A program made the translations under genes and the position numbers. Positions 1 through 33,711 of a DNA stretch of 64,000 nucleotides are shown here, one piece after another (the first letter of the stretch is position 1; each line of letters begins with the position of its first letter). The notes beneath the pieces are model-generated. The model did no database searches and was not told the origin of the DNA. It saw only the letters and a list, made by a program, of their open reading frames with translations. The stretch lies in assembly GCA_000165345.1 (NCBI GenBank), contig CM000432.1, positions 672,001-736,000 on the forward strand, in the 5' to 3' direction.

Positions 1-3000
1 CCACGAAATTAAATATGACAGCAACTTCATTTACAGCAACAGGCGCAGCTGCTTCAATTATCTCGAATAGACTTTCATTTATCTATGGCATTAAAGGACC
101 CTCTGTAACAATTGATACTGCATGTTCGTCTTCATTAGTTGCATTAGATATTGCAAAAAAAGATATTAATTTTGGTAATATAGAAACAGCAATTGTAGCA
201 GGCGTGCAGCTTTTATTATCTCCCTTGTATTATATAGTTTTTTCCAAAGCTAATATGCTTAGTCCTAGGGGAGAATGTAGAGCATTTGATGAATTATCTG
301 ATGGATTCTTAAGAGGAGAGGGTTGTATATCATTGATAATAGAAAACCATTTAAAATCCTTTGGAAAAAAAATATATGGTCGAATTTGTGGTACAGCTGT
401 AAATCAGGACGGAAAAAGTGCGAGCTTAACTGCCCCGAATGGACCTTCTCAAAAACGTGTAATTATTAATGCAATTGAAGATTCTTGCATTTCGAATAAT
501 GATATATTTTATATAGAATCTCATGGAACTGGAACACCTTTAGGGGATCCAATAGAATTCGGTGCAATATCAGATGTTTTTAAAAATAGGGCAAATAAGC
601 TTTACATTGGAACTCTAAAACCTAATATTGGTCACTTAGAAGGTGCTTCTGGAGTTGCTGGAATTTTGAAAGCTATATTAGTAGTTAATAATGGAGTAAT
701 TCCTCCGAATATTTTAATAAATAAGTTAAATTCAGGTTTATGTTTTGATGATTCTAATATGAACATAGTATTTCCTACAAATAAAGTTGAAACCAATTCA
801 AAAAGTTTAATTGCAGGAGTATCATCATTTGGATTTGGTGGAACAAATTCTCATATAATTGTAGAAACAGGTGACAGTGTGAATTCATGGGAATTACCTA
901 GAATAGATTTCAAAAGAAAAAAATTTCCATGGATTACTCCAGCACATCCATATATTGGACCAAAAATCTCAGGATCTGATAATCTGTCTCACCCATCAGA
1001 ATTAGGTCTTATAATTGATGAAATGAGTAATATTACAAATATTAAAAAACCTGACTCAAATATAACCAGATTTGTAAGAAATGTTGGTGAAAATGTGTTC
1101 TCATCAATAGTTGGTCATGTGATACAAGGAAAGATTATTTTTCCTGGATCTGCATTTATTGAAATGTCAATAGGTGGACTCATTAATTACTCTATTCGGA
1201 GTGGAATTAAAGATGTAAGCTTACTTACTATTAGCAATATTCAATTCATTAAGCCTCTAATTTTCCCAAATGAATTAGGACGGAATCCTCAAGGAAAATT
1301 AATATGTGACATTTCTCCATATGAAAATAATAATAGGAAATTAAATATACGTATTTCAACATCAGGAATTGAATATGGTATTGACGAAATGATCTATCAT
1401 TCAACATTTACTGCAGAAATTAGTAATGATGACAATTTGAAGCTTTCTGATGAGACAATAAACTTTGATAAATGCTCAAATTTTAATTCTGATCAATTTT
1501 ATTCAGAATTAAATGAAATAGGGCTAAATTATTCTGAAAAATATAAATCTATTAGAAAAATATATAAAAACAAGACTGAGATATTTGGAATTATTGAAAT
1601 TGATTCTTTAAATCGAGAAATTGATACATTTTTCTTACATCCTTCATTATTAGATGGATGTTTTCAATTATTCGCTTTATTTATTGAAAATCATGAAAAT
1701 AAAGCCAATAAACCATTTATTCCTGTGAGTATTGAAGAAATGATATTTAAACCAATTTTCAATAATAATAAATATATTGTTCCTTATAACTCATTAACTA
1801 ACTTGAAATTTATTCATCCAATAAATAGATTATTTGCTTGCATTAAAAACAAAAAAATACTAAATAGCGAAGGAATAAAAGTAGACATAAATATATATAT
1901 TAGAGACGAAGGAACTGATGGGTTAATACAAATATGTGAAATTAGAAATCTGCACTTCAGAGAATTGATTCCGATGAAAACCATAAACTATCTCCCAATA
2001 AAAGATCATTACTCATGGATATCTACTTATAGAGAATTAGAACACAAATTTGATAATGATGAAGAATTAAATAAGCTAAAGTTTCTTTTTACATCTTTAG
2101 AAGTGAATAAATTATCACTCGAACAGTTTGATTACTTTGATAACAATAAAATTCTGAATTTGATTCAAGAAAATATTTTTTCCTTCAGTACTATACCTGT
2201 ATATATTACAAGCACAAACGAAAAAGATTCATATAAAGAGCTTATTTCTATACAAAGAACTCTTCAAAACATTTATAAAAATATTGATTCATATAATAAA
2301 TTAACAATTATTTTTGTCACTATCGGTGCGAACTTATTATGTGGCAAAAATACTTTATCATCTCACTTTCAATCATCTTTACTTTCATATTTAAGGTCTG
2401 CGAGCAACGAATTCAATCAATTAGGAAAAATAAGTTTGATTATTGTTGATTGGAATAGTATTTCAAACCTAAAAATTAACAAAAACTTTTGCCAAATATT
2501 GAAATTGATATATAACAATGTTATAAATAAAAAATGGTTTGAAAAAGAATATCAGTTACTAGAGTACAATAATGAAATTAAAATCAAAACTATTAAAATA
2601 AAAGAGTCAATTAGTCCATATAATAATTATATGGCTTTAAAACTTACAAATAGAGGAGCAATATCGAATATTATAACCAATTTACAGAAGTTTAGGGTTG
2701 TTCCTATGGAAGGGGAGGTGGAAATAAGAATAAGAGCAATTGGCCTGAATTTCAGAGATGTTTTAAATGTTATGGGATTATATCCTGGCGATCCTGGAAA
2801 ACCAGGGAGTGATTTTTCGGGTACAGTAGTATCTGTAGGGCCTGGAGTGAAAAATATTCAAGTTGGTGACGATGTATTTGGTCTTTCTCAGGGTTGTATT
2901 GAAACATATCATACTACAAATGCTTTGTTGGTTGCGAAAAAACCTAAATTATTAACATTTGAAGAGGCTGCATCAATCCCAACGATTTTTTCAACAGTAA

Positions 3001-27000: not shown

Positions 27001-30000
27001 AAAATATATTATTTCAGAAAATCATGAATTCGATACAAGAGTTAACTATTAAATTAGAATCCAAAATATCTTTCGCAAAAAATACTCAAAAAAACTCTAT
27101 CTGTTTAATTCTCACTACGGACGACTATTTTAAGTCACTATCAAAATCATTTAGTGGTTTTAGCATACATCCATTCTTATTACAATTATTGTTTGATTTT
27201 ATTAAACTTTACAATATTGAGGAAATAATTAAAGGAAACAGCGAAATTAATTTTTATGAAACAATTATCAGAGAATTGTTAGATTCTTCTATTTCTCAGA
27301 AGTATCTAGTTTTTGAAGTTAACAATAATTCTGCAATAATTAAGGATAAATTTGGAAAAATATTGTTCAAAACTAGTTATTCTTTAGTTTATCTAAATTC
27401 CAAGAACACTGGAAGTGTTGAATACGAAATAGAACAGTTTTCAAATTTAAATAATTTAGATAATTTATTTTGGAATACAGAAAATCAAAAAATATTCGAG
27501 GTTGAAATGGGTATAGACGAAATTGAAGAGGACGAATATAAATGTAAAAGAATATTAATTATAGGATCTAACGATTTGGAAGATAATCTTGAAACCAAAG
27601 AAGAGACTTACTACAATGTTAGATCAGAATTTGAATTAATTAAAAATATTAAATTAAAAAATTGGGAAAAAATTATTTTTGTTATTGATAATTTCAATGT
27701 AAGCGAAATTGAGTTAATGCATTATGCAGTTATTACATGCAAAGAATGCGAATCTGATTCTAATGTGTGGTTTATTAAAATTAATCAATCGAACGACAAT
27801 TCCCTGGAGTCATATAATAAAGGAAGAGGTATTTTGGGTTTATGTAAAACTGCAAGGATTGAGTTAAGAAAGATGATTAATTACATTTCAATAGAGAAAT
27901 TTGAAGACTTGAATACTAATGCTAAATTAATTTGCAATTTAGTTAGTCTTTTATCAAAAAATAAATCAATTCCCGAGGATATTTTTGTAAATCTATATCG
28001 AAAAAAAATTCAAGTTTATACAAAAATCATAAAAGCCCAGTATTCAATTCAAATGAAAAACAATGAATTAAATAGGGATAACGAATTAATCAATGGTATT
28101 GTATTAATTAGTGGAGGTACTGGCGCGCTTGGACTTATCATTGCAGAATGGTTAATTAAATGCAAAAATATAAGAAATATTATATTACTTTCTAGGTCGG
28201 GGTTACCTTCCAAACGGTGTGAATCGATATGGGAGAGGATATTAATTTTAGATTCTAATATTCGAATTATAAAGTGCGACGTTGCAAATTATGATTCAGT
28301 GTTTTCAACATTAAAATATATCATCTCTCAAGCGATGGAATCGAACTCTAAAATTGTTGGATTAATCCATGCATCTGGGGTTTTGAATGATTCATTAATA
28401 AAAAATCATTCAATAGAGAATTTGGAGAATGTTTTTAGACCTAAAGTTTTTGGAGCAATTAATTTACATTATGCAATAAAGAACATGCTTCCATACAAGC
28501 TAAGGTTCTTTATTGGTTTTTCTTCTATTTCTTCATTATTTGGTAGTTTTGGGCAATATAGCTATTCTTCAGCAAATTCATACCTTGATTCATTGATTAA
28601 TTATCGAAGAAAGTTCAAGGAATCTAGTATTTTAGATCTAAGCATACAATGGGGACCATGGGCAGAACAAGGAATGGCAGCAGATTTATTTCAACATCAT
28701 TCATCATCAGGTATAAAACCAATTTATAATTCAGAAGGCTTAAAATGTTTGTCATCGATCTTTGATATAATTGAAGGTAGAATCGAAGATATCATCCTAC
28801 CCTCTGAAATCGCAATAGCAAATATTAATTGGAGCGAGTTCTTAACTATTTTTGAAGGCAACCCACCAATCATTTTTAGTGAAATTAGTAGCAAATTTTT
28901 AAACAATGGATCAAAACTTGAGAGCGGTTCAAAAATTAAGGATAAATTTGAAGGAATTACTGACATTCGAAGGCATATAGAGGAAGTTTTATTAATTATT
29001 GCATATGAAATATTTGGAATGGAGAAAAATAACTGTGATTTAACAGAAGTTGATTCTTTAATGGCAGTTGAGTTTAGAAATTCTATATCTAAAAATTTTG
29101 GAATAAAATTGCCAATATCTTTAATGCTTGATAATCCAACTTTAGATGAAGTCATTTCATATTTAGAAGGAGAGGTTAGGAAGGAGTTGTTTGGATCAAG
29201 TACAGAAGAATTGGTTTCTTCTAAGTCTAGGAGATGGGAAGAAATCAGACAAGATATTAATTTAGATGGAAAGATTTCTTTGTTATCAAATCCTTCCGAT
29301 GCAGTTCGTGGCTTTAGATTACCATCTGGAGAGAAAAACAAATTGCGTGAAGTATTTTTAACAGGAGGAACTGGGTTTATGGGCACCTGCATGATTGAAA
29401 ATCTTGTAAAATTGAACAGTGATATTAAGATTTGGTGTTTGGTGAGATGTTCTGACAAAAAAAATGGTAAAGAAAAGTTATTGGACGCACTTTATAAATA
29501 TTCAATTCAGAATGCAGATTTAATTTTAAAAAATAACATCAAAATTGTTGTTGGAGACACTTCAATCCCATATTTTGGTATAAATAAAACTGAATATAAA
29601 GAGATAGTAAATTCAATAGATTCCATTATTCATATTGGTGCTGTGGTAAACTTCACATCTTCTTATTCAAATATTAAAAATGTGAATGTATTAAGCATTG
29701 TAGAGTTGCTAAATCTCTCTTCTGCTCCCAACCATTGTAGCAAAAATTGTACTGAAAAAGGAAAATGTAATTCTTGCATTATTCCAATACATCATGTATC
29801 AACTTTGGGAGTTTTTTATGATCATATTGAAAATCCTCCAGTAGAACCGTATTTATCTGGCTTGGAAAATACTGAATTTATGGAAAGAACTTACTTTTTG
29901 GATGATGGAAGAAGAATATTTTACGAAGATGACCCAGTGATTACAAATGACGATGAAGGAACTCATCACAAATCACTATTATTGGGTTATTCACAATCTA

Positions 30001-31502
30001 AATGGGCAGCAGAAAGAATTCTTAGATCAGCAAGAAAAAGAGGATTCCCTATAGCCATATATAGACCAGGAAGAATAGGAGGAAACAGCATTACAGGCGC
30101 ATCCAATATTTCGGACCTCCCAAATGCATTTGTGAAGGGATGCATTAAGATGGGGACTTTACCTAGAACAAAAATGGCAATTCATTTAGTTTCGGTCGAT
30201 TTTTGCTGTCAAGTTTGTTGTTTTGGAATGAACAATCCGTCTTTATCAATTAATAATGATTTTAATTTAGACTCTGAAGGATGGGCAAATATGAATGATA
30301 TAAAAGCAGCACTTAAATTATTGGATATTGAGTTAGAAATGGTAGAATTTGAAGACTGGGTTGAACAGTTATTAGAAGAAACTTCTAAAGACAGAAATCA
30401 TCCACTTACCCCATTACAACACATGTTTGTTAAGGAAAAACCTGCAGACTCAATTATGCCATATTTTGACATGAAAAACACAAATAACCTAATATCTAAT
30501 TCTGAAAATATTAAACATGTACCTTGTGACCCAAATTATTTACTTACTTGTTTCAAGTATTTGCTTGAAAAGGATTGGATTTATTCAATTGATTCTATTA
30601 ATAAAATGATGAATAAGGACGTTTGTGCGAAGGAATATATTTTCGAATTTACAAATGACGAATTGAAGGTTGGCAATTTAGAAGTTGCTAACTTTATGAT
30701 ATTTATTTGCGATAAATTGTTTATATTAAATATCCAAGAATTTTGTAATAAAATACAATCTAAATATAATTGCAAATGCATTATAGTTACAATTCCAAAT
30801 TCTAAAGTCGATAATATTTTAAGTTCATTATCCCACATTATACATGAAGCAATTAAAGAAAATATTTCAAAAATAATTGATAAAGGAAACTCAAAAATAA
30901 TATTGGCAAGTTGGTCAATATCAAGCAATCTCACATTGCAAATATTTAAGAACTTGAATTATAAAATTTTGGATTGTGACATAAAACTATTGTTGATTGA
31001 TCCGGTAGTTCCAGTTAAATTAAGTGATAGTAATGACTCGAGAATAGATGAAATTTCATTCAAAGTTTTAAAGAAATTAGTAAAATCCTCAAGCTTACTA
31101 TCTAACTCTCTCACAGAACCAATAATAGATATATTGAATAATTCTGATTCAATTATAAATGTATACAATAAAATAACTAGCTACACAAAAAATGATTCAA
31201 AAACTGAGTTTGAAGAGTTGAAAAATGTATTAGAGAGATTAAGAACTACATTCTTAATAAGCTTGAATATCTCTAAGTCCGTATTAGAAGTCGATGAAAA
31301 AGTATATTTTGTTTTGTCACGCTCTTCAATAATGGGGGACGTATTCGAAAAGAACGGGTCATACGCAATAGTTAATGCTCAAAATATTTACAAAATAAGG
31401 GATTTAGAGCTAGTACATTTATCTGATGGAAACCATTTCACAATTTTTAATTTTTCAAATGTTGAAAGTTTGGTTAATGGACTTTCAAAAATTTTTAATT
31501 AG
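1..31502 (+). CDS. PKS1: Type I modular polyketide synthase, 5'-truncated (frame open to the window edge). It carries 6 KS, 2 AT, 2-3 DH, 2-3 ER, 4-5 KR and 6 ACP domains plus a terminal thioester reductase (R) domain and a C-terminal extension.
   Basis: One uninterrupted ORF of 10,495 aa from nt 15, with the same frame open back to nt 3. Repeated KS motifs (TIDTACSSSL; HGTGT; NIGH) occur 6 times. AT motifs (GQGSQ, GHSLGEY, AFHS) occur twice. DH motifs are HxxxGxxxxP and HPALLDGALQ. ER motifs are LNFRDVLNVMGLYPGDPG and ASGGVGL. KR motifs are a Rossmann ITGGxGxLG and YSAAN. ACP motifs are GIDSLSAVELRN. The R domain shows TGGTGFMG ... YSQSK. Stop is TAG at 31500-31502. Confidence 0.95.
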   Translation, partial: TKLNMTATSFTATGAAASIISNRLSFIYGIKGPSVTIDTACSSSLVALDIAKKDINFGNIETAIVAGVQLLLSPLYYIVFSKANMLSPRGECRAFDELSDGFLRGEGCISLIIENHLKSFGKKIYGRICGTAVNQDGKSASLTAPNGPSQKRVIINAIEDSCISNNDIFYIESHGTGTPLGDPIEFGAISDVFKNRANKLYIGTLKPNIGHLEGASGVAGILKAILVVNNGVIPPNILINKLNSGLCFDDSNMNIVFPTNKVETNSKSLIAGVSSFGFGGTNSHIIVETGDSVNSWELPRIDFKRKKFPWITPAHPYIGPKISGSDNLSHPSELGLIIDEMSNITNIKKPDSNITRFVRNVGENVFSSIVGHVIQGKIIFPGSAFIEMSIGGLINYSIRSGIKDVSLLTISNIQFIKPLIFPNELGRNPQGKLICDISPYENNNRKLNIRISTSGIEYGIDEMIYHSTFTAEISNDDNLKLSDETINFDKCSNFNSDQFYSELNEIGLNYSEKYKSIRKIYKNKTEIFGIIEIDSLNREIDTFFLHPSLLDGCFQLFALFIENHENKANKPFIPVSIEEMIFKPIFNNNKYIVPYNSLTNLKFIHPINRLFACIKNKKILNSEGIKVDINIYIRDEGTDGLIQICEIRNLHFRELIPMKTINYLPIKDHYSWISTYRELEHKFDNDEELNKLKFLFTSLEVNKLSLEQFDYFDNNKILNLIQENIFSFSTIPVYITSTNEKDSYKELISIQRTLQNIYKNIDSYNKLTIIFVTIGANLLCGKNTLSSHFQSSLLSYLRSASNEFNQLGKISLIIVDWNSISNLKINKNFCQILKLIYNNVINKKWFEKEYQLLEYNNEIKIKTIKIKESISPYNNYMALKLTNRGAISNIITNLQKFRVVPMEGEVEIRIRAIGLNFRDVLNVMGLYPGDPGKPGSDFSGTVVSVGPGVKNIQVGDDVFGLSQGCIETYHTTNALLVAKKPKLLTFEEAASIPTIFSTVKVSLNQYSKLKKGDCVLIHVASGGVGLAAIQICSRIGANIIATVGSIKKVEYLKSIGIKFVSSSRDYTKFSQDMKYFMSELNIDGVDIVINSLVGEFIPLSMKFLKRNGTFIELGKREILSENQLKEIRTDINYQTVEFDKLVENDIVWFQNLLQEIMIDINKGKIQPIPTKVFSIQDKSGIIDGFRYIQHASHIGKVILSNPSTSICSYSKDAYIITGGMGSLGLVVANWLVEEGTKNIILMGRSSIDFENKFAIKLLELSEKGKINLEMLKCNICDLNSLFNIINKIKGKYNIRAIIHAAGVLNDGSILSQTDSTFLSTFLPKSIGAWNIHYITTSLLEHIPLLIMFSSISALIGNNGQTNYSAANGNIDYLSEIRSQLGMKSISIQWGPWGEQGMAKENLNLKMLKAIGLVPIKNSLGLISLGGIISNCMINKVNKYIVQPLDPLVVKNNALTHIFSEIESEVQETRNGYLFSTMNSEELHLFVLSSIKEAISDAIGIDVNLIDSELPFKDLGIDSLSAVELRNTLTSKFEVNLPPTIIIDYPTISELCKYIEMIIGKKNVKEFDNKNIIHSNFKKSDIFISGIGIRVPGDASSVFKFWKNMTSLVTCISEIPYERWDVDKLFGDYNDKNATYYTRKGGFISIVDIFDYSKYQISKEEAIQMDPNQRIALDTCFSALSDAEIEIKDLFNTNVGVFAGMCNDEWAILSSKRNYCNAFSGTGNAKSIISNRISYVFGLKGPSITIDAACASSLIAIDQAIKSLKNNECNMAIAFGVQLNLSPNNFIVFSKAKMLSKNSECRSFDKDADGFVRGEGCGAIVLSNNNIKIKKKWGRILGSSTNHSGRSISLTAPNGVAQQKVLSTALNIAREENKSDIRPGYIECHGTGTLLGDAVEFGAIKEVYKDMYKIIDSNIDSPLILSTVKPQIGHLEGAAGIVGFIRLLVVLSFGAVPALLNYKNINPHIEVEDFNIVFPNNSTWKLNKNVGGVSSFGFGGANCHILVEGVKQKNPLIKDNEKLIFMFTGQGSHYDKMGIEYYNSNEIFRKSIDECSDFLDKFLDIPLKEAMFIEGAKEKINIDVEIYNQLSIVSIEYAEMMLLRSIGIFPDIIFGHSLGEYLVAVAAGVMTIEIALEIIYRRGIVISKFGKKGIMVAVRRSEEQIKKAIKQFENSLSQEQKLKISLGLINAPKNCIISGEENQVMAVLELLDSSKSYKKLPVSYAFHSVMFSEISNILHEEIKNKNLNYIDKKVIVFSSILGLMVKDEMSNLNYWSSQLFKPVNFYSMIKNLEEFIIKNEIKVKNIIEIGPTSLLTPLLKASSKGILNNAKFYSLMKKDSNVNPTEVLENICSNVNIKIANRSSNENNLPKIDYHLKWNEISHPFLLKRMLSPIINLNKIVKDLSFVYATPLTEKISKFFHGYKRNGAFVMPEIALIEVISAAINDINSQISMIDNGFLSVESNVPIFQLEKIHFGIPWEFRTYKTQDDRPTLIFTLDSRRNISISSNKGGHINADLKKNSIHHLDAKLNVYFPENKRESIKFPIHALENSEALLFEEIYGPIIKGSFPVINSSKCIRKIVLKENESFSILKLNFDMETDLEPSGINMGLFYSIDRFMNVHPMILESSIHTIMLAAIKNNKHFDLYFPTKIDLLNISSIDFTRNVYVHSVIREQNEEYILGDILIYHENQFDFPIVEIRKIRLEKLNFENKIPLLLNQEYAFLKEEWELQNNNEQNHYDKIIIFGCSKTFDLFKKNLAQNIYFVENEKDLLTYLNSISSSKILIINTFFRSGTKFEVISNEIELIKEIIISNDNFQKKQNNFITWWIVTKGVVLFRNNQSINNSIWKKIKEIKEKMRDYCRVFMTDTDDIYSINNIISYQKTDECCYRNGAIYFLTLNCKQLINHRVFDLRKNKNLSIEIIMVENIINESFKFLGKVVYSCNTNILGQYVIIENNNDIQHEIKIGDLVITEVDNKYLIGIDDYNYFGLRSNVALPKIQYIFDKIPFNLFENIVIKISNKNKLVKIYEICFSIIINVLKLNSVNKSRKITVIGNYDEKFSKIILSLGCKLNIDNLSKPDCLIQIGEETKLFNINQDPIAKFRIGINHEVINECNNETILNPNYQESNQLKLELSNPYLNKTEKINFVNKFGLILITGEMKNITLIINCLFALGYKKIALVKMDNNALSEKISEFGESIKLFNCLPNKVSINNCFNKIISEYQNLEITGYIHLSSIEILKTDQEKVNNYSLIPWNIHNLVTKKGYNLTFFVIISGIFGQLDQLKFGIAENLFENLTYHRNELLKLPSTYILDNKIVNYIGGNKSSLFSIENYINKIPLFTNLFSEIINSKLNGTIVPIEIDEEVINQLSKNSTEKSKKLYFKFVEKISRKNFNNIKYVKFSNNLSKRKKLIEEMVLKSVNSLIPENKKYSMDDSLLSIGISSLSAIELVNKLSSEFNYEISPSLLYEHPSINSIINYLLSLSHHFDENIEYFDDKINSEIIEKNTLLNINNYFINPEILVSSVNNDLDLNSRMCIVGMANNIPVAGASVGLFWHLLKENKDFVIEAPINRIDWGDSLNTDQSIIGKSYCNHGTFIENAHLFDNEFFKINEYEVLQMDPQQRLILEVCFDALHVSGYKNLNEMTNLNFGVFIGSCTNDWLEKLSDLDSINAYSGTGFSSSLISNRVSYSFGLTGPSLTIDTACSSSLVSLNIAVQNIEKKQCNGAVVAGVQMTLNKTTFIVFSKSMMLSKDGRCKSFDYSADGFGIGEGVAAIVILPKKECERKNKKVLAYISGSSVNQDGKSATLTAPSKNSQVKCINLALSSMEHIHPSMVTIVEAHGTGTLIGDSIEVSALYEAYCSSERKSKLMIGSGKSNFAHTFAASGIIGLIKLVLSLHNSMIIGNIHLKQLNPYIVHYEKLIIPKINTLIPIESEVAFGSVSSFGFGGTNSHVIVGVEKSDFDIISYIQKSKFNNFKRKSFEWKNFPIYDSNKPIIVYTKNSSGIFEKCDSILLNNFNPNIENIFREFFNLANKLQNNNEFGVRITRFRHYGREKNDLYLLTYENCKDKYHVSLWSIEYKLIREKEIFLDIFSRGISIISECIVEKDYRFEYYLLEQNIDIKKDNLAISLDNTNVNDIIQEKLSITSSNNIIDQILNRISEFIDINYYSISEVISFVNILDFLNSKNIELLYQVNTKSKNNKVPIRLYSQYLQEQLIEDVYSVKKSWRCILEINLLQQPPVINPFSNLLETASRKIPGSKEIEIIINAFSITECFGEKIFGISGTIVSKGNEVSDWKIGDNIIGIVESKINQFITTSNLVFRKPSFLSHEESALLLLHSPVTEEIIRRISELKRQNCILIFSKLNGVFLTVINYLLYSELNFTVVISEKNVYNFLLSIGVKKIVMKDNIDIIKSSTDNSYPDLLITDEVLNLDLINIMDNNGKIISINSKNINYWNEIERKNITYENISIIDILSKKNMDQNFDINRLKKENIFNFPILIQEYNFDNLMINNCKNYNYLGEIVYSLRSNLSENIFSFSKELFTSFKNNEMNASRHNLRNFIINKLLNNYSNTIIIDGDYFSIEDAWEIYYLITFIQLSFREIFIIFSQNNKNIEYKYLAKKIIENGFKAMIELKNFDQIDKFNSINIPIFIDFKLGGFNRLLNNDLVCSKKENGSIKFNIISERIKNIILNIIKIDSKNPIEEKKLFDTPIRELGVDSLEITELRSILSKEFEIKLPISVLFDYPTLNELIGYIENNSSKEIKINKTDLKINFDGMKKFNIGIIGASCTLPTGIDNLSSFWESLMLGKCGVNLIPYSRWNCELENDSITKNISTILGLELFDNNLFGISNIEARTMDPQQKHLLNSTFNALVSSGNSIESIKNTDTGVFVGLCNIDWSLYLLNERSCNSAYIGTGTASSIASNRLSYFYGIKGPSITIDTACSSSLVAIDAAFKNISLGICEMAIVSGSQLITTPNLFSVFSRANMLSKDGLCKSFDESADGFGRGEGVATIILKKFNFKNESNRAVLGILKGTAVNQDGRTASLTAPSSKSQSDVISHALLRSEVQFNEVSMIESHGTGTQLGDPIEIDAIKTVYQLSSKKLVIGALKTNIGHLEASAGIAGLIKLLLSLRNGISPPNLHLKNLNKYINVDNTNIVFPSSKTRLSISSDESFIGGVSSFGFGGTNAHAILEVSSANKIPMINDMAIAILNEEFENEYTMNITHLTQLRELIANNTIFESYFRYCTMIILQILNINFYEIIIENNEKLLRAEEMYILLFAFYYSIYQTLKYCKIVVDTFISDEFGSILFDTITNKIKLPNAIELLKEYCNKKLYSMNSNLKIYCLNEKENHPFKLEEVKFLNASVVIINPFTFNNKQKKQLRNMSKLIIHNESNYLQFIENVINNFGKMSKVSKIERFPLNNYIHPLLDSDIDSSYNIEISKFFIERYCDPSYENETIHQGSIIIISLLFESLISILNKKHNLSLEFKIESIEGIYETANRVRKFDKYSKLKLMKNKDHFILCAFNGLPLSSLSIKESLERKPQVYIPEIESPKYNEFKKTKIPKNILKLISSIEVHESSIYIKLKLPFFNLSVESIFCIHPAIFTLMIYSSMEILSKKIDPLKITIEKLSNIIISDVFDIEKICCNSRYTLELVCKINEGKNININLWVADDYGIQPTELFLQCDVIFTENKVNIINSSTGLVWNTIWKEIKYNLISEQKQGNKLIINFNKNTIISRKDLMVNDIFMNYSQFLEDNFDLKDINNIIVDMCIPIPNNCQMKEIDQSYFVISENWEIDFIQTFKKIINKNNRNESINIFILVNNTVKTVENDQINMNMTWVWGFMRSLRMELSSKVKILLIDIDINQLEEKSCLNTEQSIQVTNIVSNVKSLDEDGEYEFVIRENKIFVPRLKQYEFGNHIREKSQTDLEICNIITGGLGGIGLAIAEWLIEVVGMKNILLLSRNPHMSTKKSKKWKQLTEKTKENILIEKCDISNSAEIVTIIEKYSKIYKKIGVMHIAGSLIDSNIHNLTDNIVSDVNLPKIRGIINLHNATLNKNCEYFIAFSSITSLIGNIGQSAYAAANSVLDSIIEFRRKLGMPGNSLQWGAWAEQGMAAENELLQKNLVNVGLSLINNNIAFEIIKYIISDSNKFPSVLAIQPANWDKFIDKIGIRYGILKEITSNKINHDRITILNSISAENRIDFISNKIISICSEVLGIENDLNSEQSLMDFGIDSIMAVEIRNSLCDNFGISLSHTILFDYPTISSLSTYINQKFMSNCKIEKSQEQMNLKENLFDYNVAVIGAACRLPKNITNLSGLWELLMESNCSVGKIPYNRWDSGLFFSENINSGKMYTESASFIDGIEFFDNSEFKISSSEVYYIDPQQRIIMETALLAIKSSNVKLETLVNSLTGVFIGCSSSDWTILTNTASVPPGPYTGTGISSSILSNRISYIFGFQGPSFTIDSACSSSLVALDSAFEKFKNNNIQFAIVGGVNLLLSPQPFLACCAANMLSFDGICRSFDEKANGYGRGEGSISLLLTYLSKAKENNEKILGIIKSTSVNQDGKSATITAPNGPSQQFVIKHAIEKANLSPSNITYIETHGTGTKLGDPIEYNAIKSVFNLEDNTFDNNVCLLRYSPLYLGAIKANIGHLEGAAGIAGLIKLILVLNYKVAVPIPNLRKVNPLIELNNFNAIFPMDKKPVNIKNDSNIIYGGISSFGFGGTNAHVIIECNSDNITENSILFRSENFSLRRKNYAWSDTKHPLIDEKILENIGNKNSELNGIKLFRNINHKIFSSVKFALKVNNDIINMLSDHVIDNKIIWPAAAFIEMILGVARNIYICNNEQISFSKRILKTNIRNLLFEQPLILEKNEENILVCDFDLRLKRIKIYSELTYESNNELIYVSSEIGNTDKIEMINEGCLINDLEISKEKELDISLIYNRLMELGIQYGKKFKTIKKAWKLKSENEALTKIQLNSDEYIIKSDDLSAQEPFLSLTELGFGIHPALLDGALQSSFICISEIKNDLEKIIWVPFSISEIEYYNNQEPILEAWVHCKVSPTNNKNEVISDIKIYSVNKDLLFNIKNIRYRSTIDISNKIIKDSKENNPENIKNCWGLTWKKSNNILDKIEKKRWMIYLGDEIEKKSSLNNLFKYYWNKNDILEELSDFSGEINIAFVINSGINNKLHNHGIEIVNWLKHLFDINSKVSRSSVILFITENTIPHNNNNHKFIGSDIWGLVRSARYELDKYSLRLLDLDCFTKDLSEDNLSKIFSCILSSNESEFIFRNGELLFPRLSKISIPINGPLNIRLAERGALTNLLTEMQTNIPYINSDKKLDLIDCFDKLENYSEMKNEPILKDNEVLLRICSVGLNFRDVLNVMGLYPGDPGPPCSDCSGIVVSVGKGVKHLKCGDEVYAMVPGCLNTFIVAIGDTCCLMPKNCDFSLSSSIPTIYSTVDICLRKIYNIKKGDRVLIHAASGGVGLVAVNYCNSIGAKVFATVGNSKKEKYLRHLGVKNISTSRNSELFKLEMECLLKGEKLDVVINCLSGKYIEYSLELLSNNGIFIELGKINILSKKDVSLIKPGIRYEIVALDDLILNDPSWFGTVLVDIKTRIEECKESVIPLIEFSMENHKDSNDLIEKSGCISGFRFMQKANHIGKVVIKNPTLDNSLSRKNGAVIVIGGNGSLGKFTTKWLYFNGLKNIILLSRSSNNYASNLPGVKQISCDISNINSTISAINTVLENPESKPIVGIIHAAGVLDDRKLFEHSKESFKCVYSPKVQGLWNIHQITQYLYIELEFLIAYSSIASLLGNIGQANYSAANSFIDSFMSYRSSLGINSFSIQWGPWLGEGMASNNLSLKFESTGLIGVDKLTAMQALNTIIKSKKKSIPNVICVVDADWGKLVSNIPPKTSNIFTDIINKKIIEKDYNKSKIMELLEKKSSVEMEDYIINLLRDIIKTVVTDDKIDINDSKLLEKPLHEFGIDSLSAVEFRNILSKHTGILLPTTLMFDYPTIINIKDYILSEMEDIRLGDKSCDPLVTDIKKDRILDIAIIGLSCKLPGSTEDIESFWEILTGGINCVSNVPVVRWDHKKYFSLNLENFGPYYYANYGSFIDNIDIFDAHYFGISPSEATIIDPQQRLSLMLAVQSIEDAKLNLSKLKGTKTGVYVGCGNSDWALMQGNQISESEYISPYTGTSVALSLISNRISYNLGLNGPSMTVDTACSSSLVALDIAVQNLRWKKSDISIVIGVNLLISPQAYIVFSKSKMLSITGSCKTFDKDADGYVRGEGCCSMVLCRFDERENVDFDKKTLKAEQNIIIYGFIKGSAVNQDGRSASLTAPNGPAQQKVIKSAIEDSYIKLDEISIIEAHGTGTQLGDPIEFGAIKNVFNSRNRGPIYITALKTNIGHLEGASGIAGVIKMILMLNHSIVPKNLHFKTLNPLIDNSNFNAIIPDRKLKVSANIGGVSSFGFGGTNAHVIIEKNISKIPLENQNYSIIENTNKEVSNKIAFIFTGQGSQFENMGQELFENEPIFRKSMLECAKHANEYLPESLIEILYPEISTPRTKAGSKDAGFYDINDILYSQVAIFSVEYSLTKLLESKGIIPDLVIGHSLGEYCAAVIVGAIELNQALKMIINRSKILEKSNISDGGMLALRKSASSIAEILKEFDENNVSLAAVNGPNSVVISGRKYILKSILERLGGSGKFLNIDNAFHSSLMQDASNKYKDFIEEEIVFCNENKKKIKFISTLKGRLINYSELMSSDYWSNHIVCPVLFYDAINHALNKFDCTILLEIGPQPILTKLSIQCIPRELKTKIKSFCAMLGKPSTEIEHFKLVTHQINQIFSPYMNTIRGNSEVSNKNIFNNLRRFPWININSHPLVKLETDRKILLKNLNKMFDISKEGAIIELVNGGIREIFKNEIFNSMKMGRYYQCEIVLENLSFNIIEGNQEGWLEVEKKDINGFTINICSQNNLTYTLYAKIIFREDAEIELQEINIENSVISIEKFISIGLKENILFQKIMNSIQELTIKLESKISFAKNTQKNSICLILTTDDYFKSLSKSFSGFSIHPFLLQLLFDFIKLYNIEEIIKGNSEINFYETIIRELLDSSISQKYLVFEVNNNSAIIKDKFGKILFKTSYSLVYLNSKNTGSVEYEIEQFSNLNNLDNLFWNTENQKIFEVEMGIDEIEEDEYKCKRILIIGSNDLEDNLETKEETYYNVRSEFELIKNIKLKNWEKIIFVIDNFNVSEIELMHYAVITCKECESDSNVWFIKINQSNDNSLESYNKGRGILGLCKTARIELRKMINYISIEKFEDLNTNAKLICNLVSLLSKNKSIPEDIFVNLYRKKIQVYTKIIKAQYSIQMKNNELNRDNELINGIVLISGGTGALGLIIAEWLIKCKNIRNIILLSRSGLPSKRCESIWERILILDSNIRIIKCDVANYDSVFSTLKYIISQAMESNSKIVGLIHASGVLNDSLIKNHSIENLENVFRPKVFGAINLHYAIKNMLPYKLRFFIGFSSISSLFGSFGQYSYSSANSYLDSLINYRRKFKESSILDLSIQWGPWAEQGMAADLFQHHSSSGIKPIYNSEGLKCLSSIFDIIEGRIEDIILPSEIAIANINWSEFLTIFEGNPPIIFSEISSKFLNNGSKLESGSKIKDKFEGITDIRRHIEEVLLIIAYEIFGMEKNNCDLTEVDSLMAVEFRNSISKNFGIKLPISLMLDNPTLDEVISYLEGEVRKELFGSSTEELVSSKSRRWEEIRQDINLDGKISLLSNPSDAVRGFRLPSGEKNKLREVFLTGGTGFMGTCMIENLVKLNSDIKIWCLVRCSDKKNGKEKLLDALYKYSIQNADLILKNNIKIVVGDTSIPYFGINKTEYKEIVNSIDSIIHIGAVVNFTSSYSNIKNVNVLSIVELLNLSSAPNHCSKNCTEKGKCNSCIIPIHHVSTLGVFYDHIENPPVEPYLSGLENTEFMERTYFLDDGRRIFYEDDPVITNDDEGTHHKSLLLGYSQSKWAAERILRSARKRGFPIAIYRPGRIGGNSITGASNISDLPNAFVKGCIKMGTLPRTKMAIHLVSVDFCCQVCCFGMNNPSLSINNDFNLDSEGWANMNDIKAALKLLDIELEMVEFEDWVEQLLEETSKDRNHPLTPLQHMFVKEKPADSIMPYFDMKNTNNLISNSENIKHVPCDPNYLLTCFKYLLEKDWIYSIDSINKMMNKDVCAKEYIFEFTNDELKVGNLEVANFMIFICDKLFILNIQEFCNKIQSKYNCKCIIVTIPNSKVDNILSSLSHIIHEAIKENISKIIDKGNSKIILASWSISSNLTLQIFKNLNYKILDCDIKLLLIDPVVPVKLSDSNDSRIDEISFKVLKKLVKSSSLLSNSLTEPIIDILNNSDSIINVYNKITSYTKNDSKTEFEELKNVLERLRTTFLISLNISKSVLEVDEKVYFVLSRSSIMGDVFEKNGSYAIVNAQNIYKIRDLELVHLSDGNHFTIFNFSNVESLVNGLSKIFN
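3..880 (+). other. PKS module a: KS domain (partial, window starts inside it)
   Basis: DTACSSSLVA active-site Cys, ESHGTGTPLGDP, NIGHLEGASG and GFGGTNSH motifs are present. Boundaries are approximate. Confidence 0.85.
940..1900 (+). other. PKS module a: dehydratase (DH) domain
   Basis: The sequence HVIQGKIIFPGSAFIEM fits HxxxGxxxxP, and HPSLLDGCFQ is the second DH motif. Confidence 0.7.
2640..3600 (+). other. PKS module a: enoyl reductase (ER) domain
   Basis: LNFRDVLNVMGLYPGDPG and VASGGVGLAAIQI (NADPH-binding) are present. Confidence 0.8.
3640..4200 (+). other. PKS module a: ketoreductase (KR) domain
   Basis: The Rossmann motif IITGGMGSLGLVVANWL and the catalytic-region motif SSISALIGNNGQTNYSAANG are present. 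Confidence 0.8.
4440..4680 (+). other. PKS module a: ACP
   Basis: LGIDSLSAVELRN gives the phosphopantetheine-attachment Ser in a DSL context. Confidence 0.8.
4730..6020 (+). other. PKS module b: KS domain
   Basis: TIDAACASSLIAIDQA, ECHGTGTLLGD, QIGHLEGAAG and GFGGANCH are present. Confidence 0.85.
6050..6960 (+). other. PKS module b: acyltransferase (AT) domain
   Basis: FMFTGQGSHY, GHSLGEY (active-site Ser) and YAFHS are present. Confidence 0.85.
10230..10430 (+). other. PKS module b: ACP. It follows a roughly 1,100-aa region (nt 6960-10230) with only degenerate DH-like and KR-like motifs.
   Basis: SIGISSLSAIELVNKL marks the ACP. The preceding region carries ITGEMKNITLIINCLFALGYKKIALV (Rossmann-like) but no catalytic YxxxN/K motif. 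Confidence 0.6.
10570..11860 (+). other. PKS module c: KS domain
   Basis: MCIVGMANNIP, TIDTACSSSLVSLNIA, EAHGTGTLIGD and GFGGTNSH are present. Confidence 0.85.
14060..14260 (+). other. PKS module c: ACP. The module has no AT, DH or KR that I can recognise, only a degenerate ER-like stretch.
   Basis: LGVDSLEITELRSIL is present. Confidence 0.6.
14300..15560 (+). other. PKS module d: KS domain
   Basis: IGIIGASCTLPTG, TIDTACSSSLVAIDAA, ESHGTGTQLGDP, NIGHLEASAG and GFGGTNAH are present. Confidence 0.85.
17760..18320 (+). other. PKS module d: KR domain
   Basis: IITGGLGGIGLAIAEWL and SSITSLIGNIGQSAYAAANS are present. Confidence 0.8.
18590..18800 (+). other. PKS module d: ACP
   Basis: FGIDSIMAVEIRNSL is present. 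Confidence 0.75.
18860..20170 (+). other. PKS module e: KS domain
   Basis: VAVIGAACRLP, TIDSACSSSLVALDSA, ETHGTGTKLGDP, NIGHLEGAAG and GFGGTNAH are present. Confidence 0.85.
20250..21300 (+). other. PKS module e: DH domain
   Basis: HVIDNKIIWPAAAF and IHPALLDGALQ are present. Confidence 0.75.
21990..22950 (+). other. PKS module e: ER domain
   Basis: LNFRDVLNVMGLYPGDPG and AASGGVGLVAV are present. Confidence 0.8.
22990..23540 (+). other. PKS module e: KR domain
   Basis: VIVIGGNGSLGKF and GNIGQANYSAANS are present. Confidence 0.8.
23850..24050 (+). other. PKS module e: ACP
   Basis: FGIDSLSAVEFRNIL is present. Confidence 0.8.
24100..25410 (+). other. PKS module f: KS domain
   Basis: IAIIGLSCKLPG, TVDTACSSSLVALDIA, EAHGTGTQLGDP, NIGHLEGASG and GFGGTNAH are present. 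Confidence 0.85.
25480..26400 (+). other. PKS module f: AT domain
   Basis: FIFTGQGSQF, GHSLGEY and NAFHSS are present. Confidence 0.85.
28090..28700 (+). other. PKS module f: KR domain
   Basis: LISGGTGALGLIIAEWL and FGSFGQYSYSSANS are present. Confidence 0.8.
28960..29180 (+). other. PKS module f: terminal ACP
   Basis: EVDSLMAVEFRNSI is present. Confidence 0.75.
29330..30450 (+). other. PKS terminal thioester reductase (R) domain, SDR fold
   Basis: FLTGGTGFMGTCMIENL is an NAD(P)-binding TGxTGFxG motif. YSQSKWAAE gives the catalytic YxxxK about 210 aa downstream. The architecture matches NRPS/PKS terminal R domains. Confidence 0.8.
30460..31499 (+). other. PKS C-terminal extension of about 340 aa beyond the R domain, function unknown
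   Basis: The frame continues with no known PKS motif. Weak alpha/beta-hydrolase-like hints are ILASWSISS (a GxSxG-like elbow) and DGNHFTIF (a GxH-like motif) near the C-terminus. Confidence 0.35.
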
Positions 31503-31659: not shown

Positions 31660-33711
31660 ATGTCAAATATTTCAAAATTGAAAAAACTAGAAGAACTTAG
31701 AAGTATTATGAGCCAACATGGGGTTGACGCATATATCATTAGTTCAAGCGACCCTCATATGTCGGAATATACTCCAGATAAATACAAACGAAGAGAATTT
31801 ATGACTGGTTTCTCTGGGTCACAGGGAATTTGTCTTGTTACACAGTCGAGCGCACATTTAATTGTTGATGGTAGATATATTGTCGAAGCAAAGAAGACTG
31901 CTACTCCTGAGTATCAGGTTCATTTGTTAAAAAAGGGCTTTTACGCTGATATTGTAGATATTTTAAAAGAAGAAAGTTTTGATGGCACATTAGGAATTGA
32001 CGTTGAGGTTACTTCTTGGATGTCATTTAAAGCCTTAGCTAATTATATTGAACTTTCAGATCTACATTTAAATACAAACTTCCGAATAAAATTGCTAAAT
32101 TTGAATTTTGTCGATGTTTTACGGCCACAAGAAGAGATTGAACAAGCCAGAAGTGAGATTTTTGTTCATGGAATTGAATACGCTGGTGAATCATCCAAGT
32201 CAAAGGTTAGCAAAGTTTTATTGGAAATGAAAAAACTGAATGCAAAAATATTGTTTCTAAGCAGCCTAACTCAAATTTCATGGCTACTTAATTTAAGAGG
32301 CTCAGATGTACATTGCACACCTGTATTCCTTTCATATCTAATTGTAGAAATTCTTGATGATAAAGTTGGAATAGATAAGAAGGAAACATCATTTAGTCTT
32401 AAAGTTTTTGTTAATGTTGAATCTATTAAGTGTTGCGAAGAAGTATTGAAAAATGAATTTCAGGACAAAATTTCTATAATTCAAATTGAAAATATAATGG
32501 ATGAACTCTTTCATTCATTTAGTAAATTGAATTCACATACAAAAAACGAATTGAATAAAATATGGCTGCCTGAGAATTTTTGCAACTTAGCAGCAATGGA
32601 CACGTTATTTAAAGTATTGAACCCTCGTGAAAATTGCAATAATTCGAGTTATTATAAATATTTAATCGACTACTTAAACTCTTCAAAATTACTAATAACT
32701 TCCGAGTCCCCTATCATCATGCTACGTGCAATAAAGAACAAAATCGAATTAAAGGGAATGCGCGAGTGCCATATTTATGATGGTTTAGCACTTACTAAAT
32801 TCCTATATTATTTGTACAAGGCTGGAAGAGATAAGACTCTTTTTAATGGAAAAGTATCCGAGTGGGATCTTTCTCAGAAGCTGCTTGAATTTAGAAAACA
32901 ACAACCAAAATTTGTCTATCCAAGTTTTGATACAATTTCTTCTATAGGAGAAAATGGGGCGATAATTCATTATCGTCCTGAAAAAGAAAATTCTTCAATT
33001 ATTAAGCCTGATCTTTACCTTTGTGATTCTGGTGGACAGTACCATACTGGCACAACAGATGTAACAAGAACTTTGTTCTTGTTCGGGATTGGAGAAGAAA
33101 GGCCAACAATTGAGCAAATTGAATCGTTTACTCGAGTATTGATAGGTTTTATTCGCTTACATAAGCTAGTATTCCCAATTGGGACAAATGCTACTGCAAT
33201 TGACGTTCTTGCAAGAGCCAGCCTATGGGAGGCTGGTTTAGATTATTTACATGGTACCGGACATGGGGTTGGCTCGTTTTTATCTGTTCATGAAGAGCCC
33301 TGGTCAATTTGTTATAAGGTTGGAAGGGATGGTGCTTCTAAACAAAATCTAGCTGCAGGCGCAGTAGTTTCAATTGAACCTGGATACTATGAAGAAGGAA
33401 AATACGGTATAAGAATTGAAAACTTGGCTGAGATTATTGAAGTAGATATTGATAATGGCTACAGAAAGATGAATAAATTTCTCAAGTTCTCGCCTCTTAC
33501 ATTCGCACCCATTCAAAAAGAGATGATTGACATTTCAATTCTTTCAGATGATGAACTAGATTGGTTAAATTGGTATCATTCAAAAACCCTGGAGAACTTA
33601 GAGCCGTTGGTAGATGATGATCCCGAGTTTTTGAAATGGCTAGTTCAAGCATGTTCACCAATAAATAGATATATTTCAAAAATTGATTTTCCAAAAACAT
33701 TATACCAGTAA
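31660..33711 (+). CDS. Xaa-Pro aminopeptidase (aminopeptidase P, M24B family), cytosolic type
   Basis: HGTGHGVGSFLSVHEEP is the M24 metal-binding signature. The protein has an N-terminal creatinase-like domain and a C-terminal EPGYY..GIRIEN stretch. Confidence 0.85.
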   Translation: MSNISKLKKLEELRSIMSQHGVDAYIISSSDPHMSEYTPDKYKRREFMTGFSGSQGICLVTQSSAHLIVDGRYIVEAKKTATPEYQVHLLKKGFYADIVDILKEESFDGTLGIDVEVTSWMSFKALANYIELSDLHLNTNFRIKLLNLNFVDVLRPQEEIEQARSEIFVHGIEYAGESSKSKVSKVLLEMKKLNAKILFLSSLTQISWLLNLRGSDVHCTPVFLSYLIVEILDDKVGIDKKETSFSLKVFVNVESIKCCEEVLKNEFQDKISIIQIENIMDELFHSFSKLNSHTKNELNKIWLPENFCNLAAMDTLFKVLNPRENCNNSSYYKYLIDYLNSSKLLITSESPIIMLRAIKNKIELKGMRECHIYDGLALTKFLYYLYKAGRDKTLFNGKVSEWDLSQKLLEFRKQQPKFVYPSFDTISSIGENGAIIHYRPEKENSSIIKPDLYLCDSGGQYHTGTTDVTRTLFLFGIGEERPTIEQIESFTRVLIGFIRLHKLVFPIGTNATAIDVLARASLWEAGLDYLHGTGHGVGSFLSVHEEPWSICYKVGRDGASKQNLAAGAVVSIEPGYYEEGKYGIRIENLAEIIEVDIDNGYRKMNKFLKFSPLTFAPIQKEMIDISILSDDELDWLNWYHSKTLENLEPLVDDDPEFLKWLVQACSPINRYISKIDFPKTLYQ

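Follow-up and report, generated by a model that had tools for sequence, protein, structure and literature searches.

The 64,000-nucleotide (nt) window analysed here, which is the whole stretch from position 672,001 to 736,000 of contig CM000432.1, contains the 3′ 10,499 codons of CpPKS1 (cgd4_2900), the 40-kb polyketide synthase (PKS) gene on chromosome 4 of Cryptosporidium parvum (C. parvum). CpPKS1 belongs to a pair of giant lipid synthases, PKS1 and the fatty acid synthase FAS1 are specific to the female stage (PMC6877471), and the oocyst wall, which is resistant in the environment, is thought to owe its acid-fast lipids to CpPKS1 (PMC6877471, PMC3760245). The CpPKS1 reading frame is free of stop codons from base 3 to 31499, and its stop codon is located at 31500–31502. 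The frame is open to the left edge of the window, which truncates the gene, and the ATG at position 15 in the list of open reading frames (ORFs) was ruled out as the start of CpPKS1, the frame being open through positions 1–14 of the window. At its 3′ end the protein continues past a terminal thioester-reductase (R) domain into a tail of 308 amino acids (aa). By fold and ancestry, this tail is very probably a diverged thioesterase (TE)-type α/β-hydrolase. The end of CpPKS1 is interpreted here as a tandem R plus TE-like off-loading region that would provide a second release route besides reduction, a reading that is given a probability of about 0.6.

The R domain that precedes the tail is recognised by curated models. 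It matches TIGR01746 with 229.3 bits (cut-off 213.35) over model positions 2–369 of 371, and PF07993 with E = 3e-61. The domain features the NAD(P)H-binding motif TGGTGFMG, the motif HH(V/I)STLG (HHVSTLG in C. parvum), and GYSQSKWAAE, which contains the Y-x-x-x-K pattern, and its catalytic Gly, Ser/Thr, Tyr, and Lys positions are invariant across the nine species compared below. Judged by these motifs, the R domain of CpPKS1 is intact and looks fully functional. The ACP (acyl carrier protein) that lies upstream of it has a DSL motif that is kept in eight of the nine species and is DSM in C. ryanae. Because the R model is already complete at nt 30575, the 308 aa encoded after this position (30576–31499) are extra, and the tail alone gives no match to either of the R models. 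An initial annotation of this DNA, made from the sequence alone, had reported an extension beyond the R domain of about 340 aa that begins at position 30460. The extension exists, and its length has to be corrected to the 308 aa that follow the end of the TIGR01746 match; position 30460 is one base out of frame (in-frame codons begin at 30459 or 30462) and falls 38 codons inside the R domain. The sequence is AT-rich, with a G+C content of about 30%.

Orthologous tails were reached by synteny, using the aminopeptidase encoded downstream of CpPKS1 as the search query and then the 10 kb upstream of its orthologues. The eight sources are C. ubiquitum, C. felis, C. ryanae, C. serpentis, chipmunk genotype I, C. 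canis, C. xiaoi, and a Logan assembly. Each of the eight loci contains one long ORF that stops shortly ahead of the aminopeptidase, and the eight orthologous tails are equal in length within 2 aa and are free of stops and frameshifts. The nine tails, including that of C. parvum, align across 318 columns almost without gaps and with identities to C. parvum that range from 82% to 27%, while the R domains of the same species are 89–62% identical. Pairwise ratios of nonsynonymous to synonymous substitution rates (dN/dS) are 0.14–0.26 for the tail versus 0.07–0.11 for R. The tail evolves faster than R, yet it is clearly under purifying selection. The Logan assembly, from run SRR31860986 (L006, an 85.9-kb contig), features the syntenic PKS–aminopeptidase locus of a Cryptosporidium; its aminopeptidase is 79% and its tail 59% identical to C. 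parvum, which places the tail between those of C. ubiquitum and C. canis.

Across the nine species, 28 of the 308 columns are invariant, and these include W113, S114, S117, L139, L140, D142, P143, H287, and F288 (tail numbering). D142 is the sole invariant residue among 19 Asp and H287 the sole invariant residue among 4 His, and the 7 Ser positions of 37 that do not vary include S114. The initial annotation had likened ILASWSISSNL to a G-x-S-x-G nucleophile elbow and HLSDGNHFTIF to the His motif of type I thioesterases, and had named conservation of the Ser and the His in orthologues as a check. The first motif is present at nt 30900–30932; it is not a literal G-x-S-x-G, and its core S-W-S-I-S corresponds to the pattern small-x-Ser-x-small. 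The second motif is present at nt 31416–31448. Both Ser114 and His287 are invariant in the nine species, as is an Asp that had not been named. The elbow is G-S-W-S-[I/L]-x-S in seven species, with the Gly one position further out than in the canonical motif, A-S-W-S-I-S-S in C. parvum, and S-G-W-S-I-A-S in C. serpentis. Shuffling of a single tail sequence produced a small-x-S-x-small site in 57% of the shuffles, and 15% contained Ser, Asp, and His at TE-like spacing. Taken from one sequence, the motifs do not exceed chance, and in the aligned sequences it is their conservation that raises them above chance.

In the thioesterases of PKS, nonribosomal peptide synthetases (NRPS), and fatty acid synthases, unlike in most α/β-hydrolases, the strand that directly follows the nucleophile helix bears the catalytic acid, and the lid insertion comes behind this strand. 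Structure prediction, which the initial annotation had also proposed, was done with AlphaFold on two independent targets. Both models show an α/β-hydrolase topology with an identical order of secondary-structure elements, and their matches in the PDB are dominated by PKS and NRPS thioesterases. Model 1 is the C. parvum tail, for which a Foldseek search against the PDB placed the surfactin TE first (4.9e-7), followed by the SulM, RifR, Vlm2, NocB, GbnD6, RedJ, BorB, YbtT, EntF, human FAS, and tautomycetin thioesterases. Model 2 is the C. ryanae orthologue trimmed to the domain, with a predicted local distance difference test score (pLDDT) of 72.6 and a predicted template modelling score (pTM) of 0.76. 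The top 22 Foldseek matches of model 2 are all PKS or NRPS thioesterases, with RedJ first at 4.7e-8 and with SulM, Vlm2, tautomycetin, GbnD6, YbtT, and RifR also among them. The predicted models reveal the α/β-hydrolase core of a PF00975-type TE, and the Ser elbow, the Asp at a strand end, the His loop, and the helical lid of a TE domain are all found. The lid consists of four to five helices in both models and is the least conserved portion of the domain; it is predicted with lower confidence, its helices spanning about residues 157–234 at moderate or low confidence.

A profile–profile comparison provides additional support for a TE ancestry. The reference alignment consisted of 13 NRPS TE domains, those of E. 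coli EntF and of 12 diverse plasmid-borne NRPS termini, and its invariant columns include the Ser, the Asp (Ser+27), and the His. The alignment of the nine tails to this reference with hhalign has P = 0.0011 over a 60-column core. The core pairs I-i-g-S-W-S-I-x-S-s-x-A with L-l-G-w-S-l-G-G-x-v-A, so that the Ser114 elbow is aligned to the G-[WY]-S-x-G of the TE domains, and L-L-L-i-D-P with L-x-l-L-D-t, which places Asp142 on the invariant TE Asp. A relaxed hhalign run extends collinearly as far as the C-terminus, and in it H287 is paired, at low confidence, with the invariant His of the TE domains. The unshuffled alignment scores 32.0, whereas 150 column shuffles gave a mean of 12.3 with a standard deviation of 2.2 and a maximum of 20.1, and the reversed tail alignment scored 10.9. 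Against the single EntF TE sequence, the alignment is in register but not significant (E = 0.48). The R-then-TE-like tandem release region that the initial annotation had suggested is thus supported by the predicted fold together with the conserved Ser and His. The features of the C-terminus are listed in Table 1.

Table 1. Features of the CpPKS1 C-terminus in window positions; rows on predicted topology are in tail residue numbering
Feature	Position	Strand	Evidence or remark
Last ACP of CpPKS1	29049..29165	+	PF00550 PP-binding, E = 3.3e-8
Phosphopantetheine-attachment Ser of the ACP DSL motif	29055–29057	+	Ser invariant in 9 species
Terminal thioester-reductase (R) domain	29352..30575	+	TIGR01746, PF07993
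Linker between R and hydrolase-like domain, ~37 aa	30576..30686	+	Low pLDDT (model 1), poorly conserved columns
Thioesterase-like α/β-hydrolase domain, ~270 aa	30687..31499	+	Tail residues 38–308
Nucleophile elbow S-W-S-I-S	30909..30923	+	Proposed catalytic Ser114 at nt 30915–30917
Proposed catalytic Asp142	30999..31001	+	In L-L-L-I-D-P, Ser+28
Helical insertion (lid), ~90 aa	31023..31295	+	Inserted behind the Asp142 strand, ahead of the next one
Proposed catalytic His287	31434..31436	+	In (D/E/N)-x-x-H-F-x-(I/M)-(F/L)
Predicted topology, N-terminal half	Strand 39–45, helix, strand 66–72, helix 81–100, strand 107–113		
Predicted topology, Ser and Asp of the triad	Ser114 at start of helix 114–126; strand 135–143 ending at Asp142		
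Predicted topology, C-terminal half	~90-aa helical insertion, three strands, His287 loop after strand 278–282, helix 294–307		

There are a number of results that weigh against this interpretation, and many of them come from sequence searches. No curated family model reaches its threshold on any of the tails. A search of the C. parvum tail with Pfam and NCBIfam gave only noise (NPP-6_helical and CED4_WHD, E > 0.01). The Thioesterase hidden Markov model (HMM) PF00975, which the initial annotation had proposed as a search, gives no match at normal thresholds. It has no match on the C. parvum tail itself, and its best score is 12.5 bits (E = 0.17; cut-off 26.4 bits), obtained for C. serpentis only of the nine tails, where residues 91–146 match model positions 48–101, below threshold and in the right register. 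The TE-like domain is regarded as a very diverged relative because the PF00975 search misses it at normal thresholds. In the tail of the chipmunk genotype, residues 75–184 match PF10230, a lipid-droplet hydrolase family, with E = 0.0037, again below threshold. These two weak matches share segment and register and speak for the hydrolase reading. A phmmer search with the C. parvum tail against PDB sequences found no hydrolase, and a nine-tail profile against the same sequences found no TE at E ≤ 10; the PDB-sequence matches are a tau repeat, uL23, and a designed helical protein, and they are compositional. A word-indexed search of 5.8 billion proteins with the tail or the nine-sequence profile (E ≤ 10) returned nothing, and as this search also misses known Cryptosporidium PKS fragments, its null results say little for the C-termini of proteins of such length. 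When 1.84 billion representatives were searched exhaustively with phmmer, the matches were two Cryptosporidium PKS fragments (of 3421 and 5170 aa), namely the C. ryanae fragment P0136 and the C. canis-like P0135, and one repeat protein, with no relative outside Cryptosporidium PKS. As far as sequence goes, the tail is restricted to the genus Cryptosporidium. The repeat protein, P0137 (2446 aa), matches tail residues 152–247, which correspond to the lid, in 12 stretches with E = 1e-12 and 25% identity; P0137 is tandem-repeat-like and the match is probably compositional.

The remaining points of this kind concern the models, the active site, the domain order, and the published work on release. 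Both AlphaFold models were built on alignments of three sequences each, and model 1 is of low confidence, with a pLDDT of 50.9 and a pTM of 0.50. Model 2 has template modelling scores (TM-scores) of 0.46–0.57, which amounts to ~0.5 to solved TEs. Both canonical Gly positions of G-x-S-x-G are unfilled in eight of the nine species, and the oxyanion loop is F-I-C-D-K as compared with F-C-x-H-P-x-x-G in the TE reference alignment. The tail is not located directly 3′ of the last carrier protein, as the order is ACP, R, linker, and TE-like domain. In the searchable literature, release is predicted to occur through R by reduction only, which would give fatty or polyketide alcohols (PMC2995488, PMC6568194), and a type II thioesterase that prefers C10, CpTEII, exists in C. 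parvum as a separate protein (PMC6568194). In the case of the paralogue CpFAS1, NADPH-dependent activity was shown by a recombinant “R” of ~780 aa, its own C-terminal half included (PMC2995488). The CpFAS1-R assay, the only one published for an apicomplexan “R” C-terminus, followed NADPH consumption only, so that thioesterase activity could not have shown, and, in CpFAS1, the “R domain” has a C-terminal half described as apicomplexan-specific and without putative motifs (PMC2995488).

Among the other explanations for the tail, the one that survives best retains the TE-derived fold and makes the domain a pseudoenzyme, which would serve as a structural, dimerisation, or membrane- or partner-docking module, or as a pocket that passes very long chains on to R, with no acyl-enzyme being formed. 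This explanation is unlikely. It is consistent with a tail that evolves 2–3 times faster than R, with the missing elbow glycines and oxyanion-loop motif, with the lack of a family HMM at threshold, and with an unusually long lid, and the intact R domain could suffice for release. A scaffold, however, has no reason to fix a Ser, a single Asp, and a single His while the rest of the sequence drifts to 27% identity, and the S-W-S-I-S elbow meets the small-x-Ser-x-small rule, with G-W-S-I-A found in C. serpentis. The initial annotation had also considered a docking or regulatory domain; this may be an added role of the tail, and it leaves the invariant triad unexplained.

A further explanation, which is improbable, is that the domain is an active, built-in proofreading thioesterase of the type II kind that frees the ACPs of acyl groups that are mis-primed or have stalled, with product release left to R alone. 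The type II enzymes RedJ, RifR, YbtT, BorB, and ClbQ are among the best structural matches, and an intact R domain would fit such a division. Editing thioesterases are normally free-standing, however, and C. parvum already has CpTEII for this purpose (PMC6568194). Additionally, a domain that is tethered at the C-terminus reaches mainly the last ACP.

The tail could also be a lineage-specific enlargement of the C-terminal substrate-binding subdomain of R that has no hydrolase ancestry. The account of CpFAS1-R, in which the C-terminal half is motif-less and confined to apicomplexans (PMC2995488), agrees with this, as do ordinary database searches, which give no significant match. The R model, however, is complete (2–369 of 371) before the tail begins, and four full-length bacterial R relatives, whose tblastn matches extend to query residues 347–387 of 408, end 29–95 aa past the match, near the Cryptosporidium R end. 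The tail modelled alone is an α/β-hydrolase and its match to the TE profile is far above the shuffled controls, so an enlargement of R is very unlikely. Two other identities, the “Sterile” domain of fatty acyl reductases (FAR; PF03015) and a sulfotransferase, the latter drawn for coccidian PKS1 as in the sulfotransferase–TE (ST-TE) of CurM (PMC3760245), were rejected, as neither has an HMM match at E ≤ 10 in any of the nine tails. The explanation that the tail is non-functional or an artefact, such as read-through, a low-complexity tail, or a mis-assembled 3′ end, can draw on the AT-rich sequence and the absence of a database family, and its chance is negligible given the same frame, a length equal within 2 aa, and the same relative stop in nine independently assembled species, with dN/dS well below 1.

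In the preferred interpretation of a tandem R plus TE-like off-loading region, the TE-like domain is probably catalytic, because selection fixed the triad while three quarters of the other residues changed. The substrate, the acceptor, and the division of work between R and the TE-like domain are inferred only, and the proposal is as follows. The phosphopantetheine arm of the last ACP would bring the finished very-long-chain acyl or polyketide thioester to R, where reductive release would yield an aldehyde or alcohol. Alternatively, the last ACP would bring the chain to the TE-like domain, where it would move onto Ser114. The chain would then leave Ser114 by the attack of water, resulting in a free acid, or by transfer to a hydroxyl acceptor, resulting in an ester. 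The TE-like exit may be parallel to, or downstream of, reductive release by R. The lipids that are reported from the Cryptosporidium oocyst wall are triglycerides with elongated acyl chains (PMC3760245). As these triglycerides are at the oxidation level of the carboxylate and are not alcohols, a non-reductive exit is plausible. The blindness of the CpFAS1-R assay to thioesterase activity also leaves room for such an exit.

In a cooperative variant of this proposal, R and the TE-like domain would form a two-enzyme off-loading unit without a described bacterial counterpart. R would reduce one chain to a very-long-chain alcohol, or leave the chain for an external acceptor, and the TE-like domain would function as an acyltransferase and not as a hydrolase, so that the alcohol made by R, or a hydroxyl of glycerol, diacylglycerol, or a sugar, off-loads the next chain from the Ser. 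The acid-fast lipids of the oocyst wall, of the wax-ester or acylglycerol type, would in this way be direct products of the megasynthase. This variant is speculative and quite unlikely.

The best structural matches of the predicted domain are type I TE domains (PF00975), which include SrfTE (1jmk), tautomycetin TE (3lcr), SulM TE (8w2c), Vlm2 TE (6ecf), and EntF TE. As in these domains, the predicted fold places the Ser at a strand–turn–helix elbow and the Asp where the strand that comes next ends (with a spacing of 28 here and 27 in the EntF type), inserts a helical lid behind this strand, and has the His shortly ahead of the C-terminal helix, and the domain is found at the C-terminus of an assembly line. 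Unlike in type I TEs, the identity is only ~10–13%, no HMM threshold is reached, the elbow is S-W-S-I-S, and the oxyanion motif is not conserved; at ~90 aa the lid exceeds those of the NRPS TEs in the reference alignment, and the domain follows a reductase and not a carrier protein. The type II TEs RedJ, RifR, YbtT, BorB, and ClbQ share the fold and the triad arrangement that are predicted here, however, they are free-standing, whereas the CpPKS1 domain is fused to the synthase.

The TEs of human FAS (2px6, 7mhd) and M. tuberculosis Pks13 (7vjt) are terminal TEs of lipid megasynthases that handle long chains and feature large helical subdomains. Both are among the structural matches, with scores below those of the NRPS and PKS TEs and without a match at the sequence level, and neither is preceded by an R domain, unlike in CpPKS1. 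In Pks13-TE the acceptor of the product is a sugar hydroxyl and not water, which is a precedent for ester-forming release. When compared with R/TR release domains (TIGR01746, PF07993; CpFAS1-R, PMC2995488), CpPKS1 has one intact domain of this kind immediately upstream of the tail, and the tail itself is not covered by the R model and is predicted to fold differently; the literature treats the whole C-terminus as “R”. A search for R relatives in the genomes of bacteria and archaea found four full-length bacterial proteins that all end with R, which are too few to judge how rare an R-TE order is. No account of an R-then-TE terminus or of this domain was found in the searchable literature, and a structure-based InterPro or CryptoDB signature might already flag the domain. 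It is filed as a diverged variant because the HMM threshold and the position directly after an ACP both fail; it is a new, strongly diverged TE variant rather than a plain PF00975 member, and most probably descended from PKS/NRPS TEs.

If the tandem is what it appears to be, the R-then-TE arrangement exists in nature, in the form of a domain that is beyond the reach of standard HMM annotation, and the accepted domain map of CpPKS1 would be revised. Acids or esters would become possible products beside alcohols, which fits the acylglycerols that are reported in oocyst walls. The residues that can be mutated are defined as Ser114, Asp142, and His287 (nt 30915, 30999, and 31434). Inhibitors that bind serine hydrolases covalently are an existing class, as are activity-based probes, and the domain would present them with a new type of target site. 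If the C-terminal halves of the “R” domains of CpFAS1 and of coccidian FAS and PKS proteins are the same domain, the release mechanism would be general to apicomplexans.

The three ORFs just 3′ of CpPKS1 encode an M24 aminopeptidase, a hypothetical protein, and VPS52, and they are exact matches to C. parvum proteins. The gene order 3′ of the PKS (window positions 31660–64000) is M24 aminopeptidase, hypothetical protein, VPS52, a TPR/Fis1-like protein, AP2, and ERCC4. The order downstream of the PKS is kept in all of the Cryptosporidium loci that were fetched (L001–L008), with one additional gene of 421 aa in C. serpentis. In C. serpentis the PKS stop is located ~1.07 kb ahead of the aminopeptidase start (L004:8927-10000), a gap that contains no ORF of at least 150 aa, and in the other eight species this distance is ~100–240 bp.

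Two antisense ORFs are located on the minus strand inside the tail-coding region, one at 30581–30934 (117 aa) and one at 30959–31168 (69 aa). They were rejected as genes. Because the plus frame is conserved with dN/dS < 0.3, chance most likely accounts for these two ORFs, the DNA being AT-rich. The public annotations of C. felis (L002:3-9761) and C. serpentis (L004:2-8926) have no gene model across the PKS 3′ end, and the C. felis annotation features two small antisense models there. The unbroken PKS ORFs at these two loci are 3253 codons long in C. felis and 2975 codons long in C. serpentis, and the PKS is probably unannotated or mis-annotated in both assemblies.

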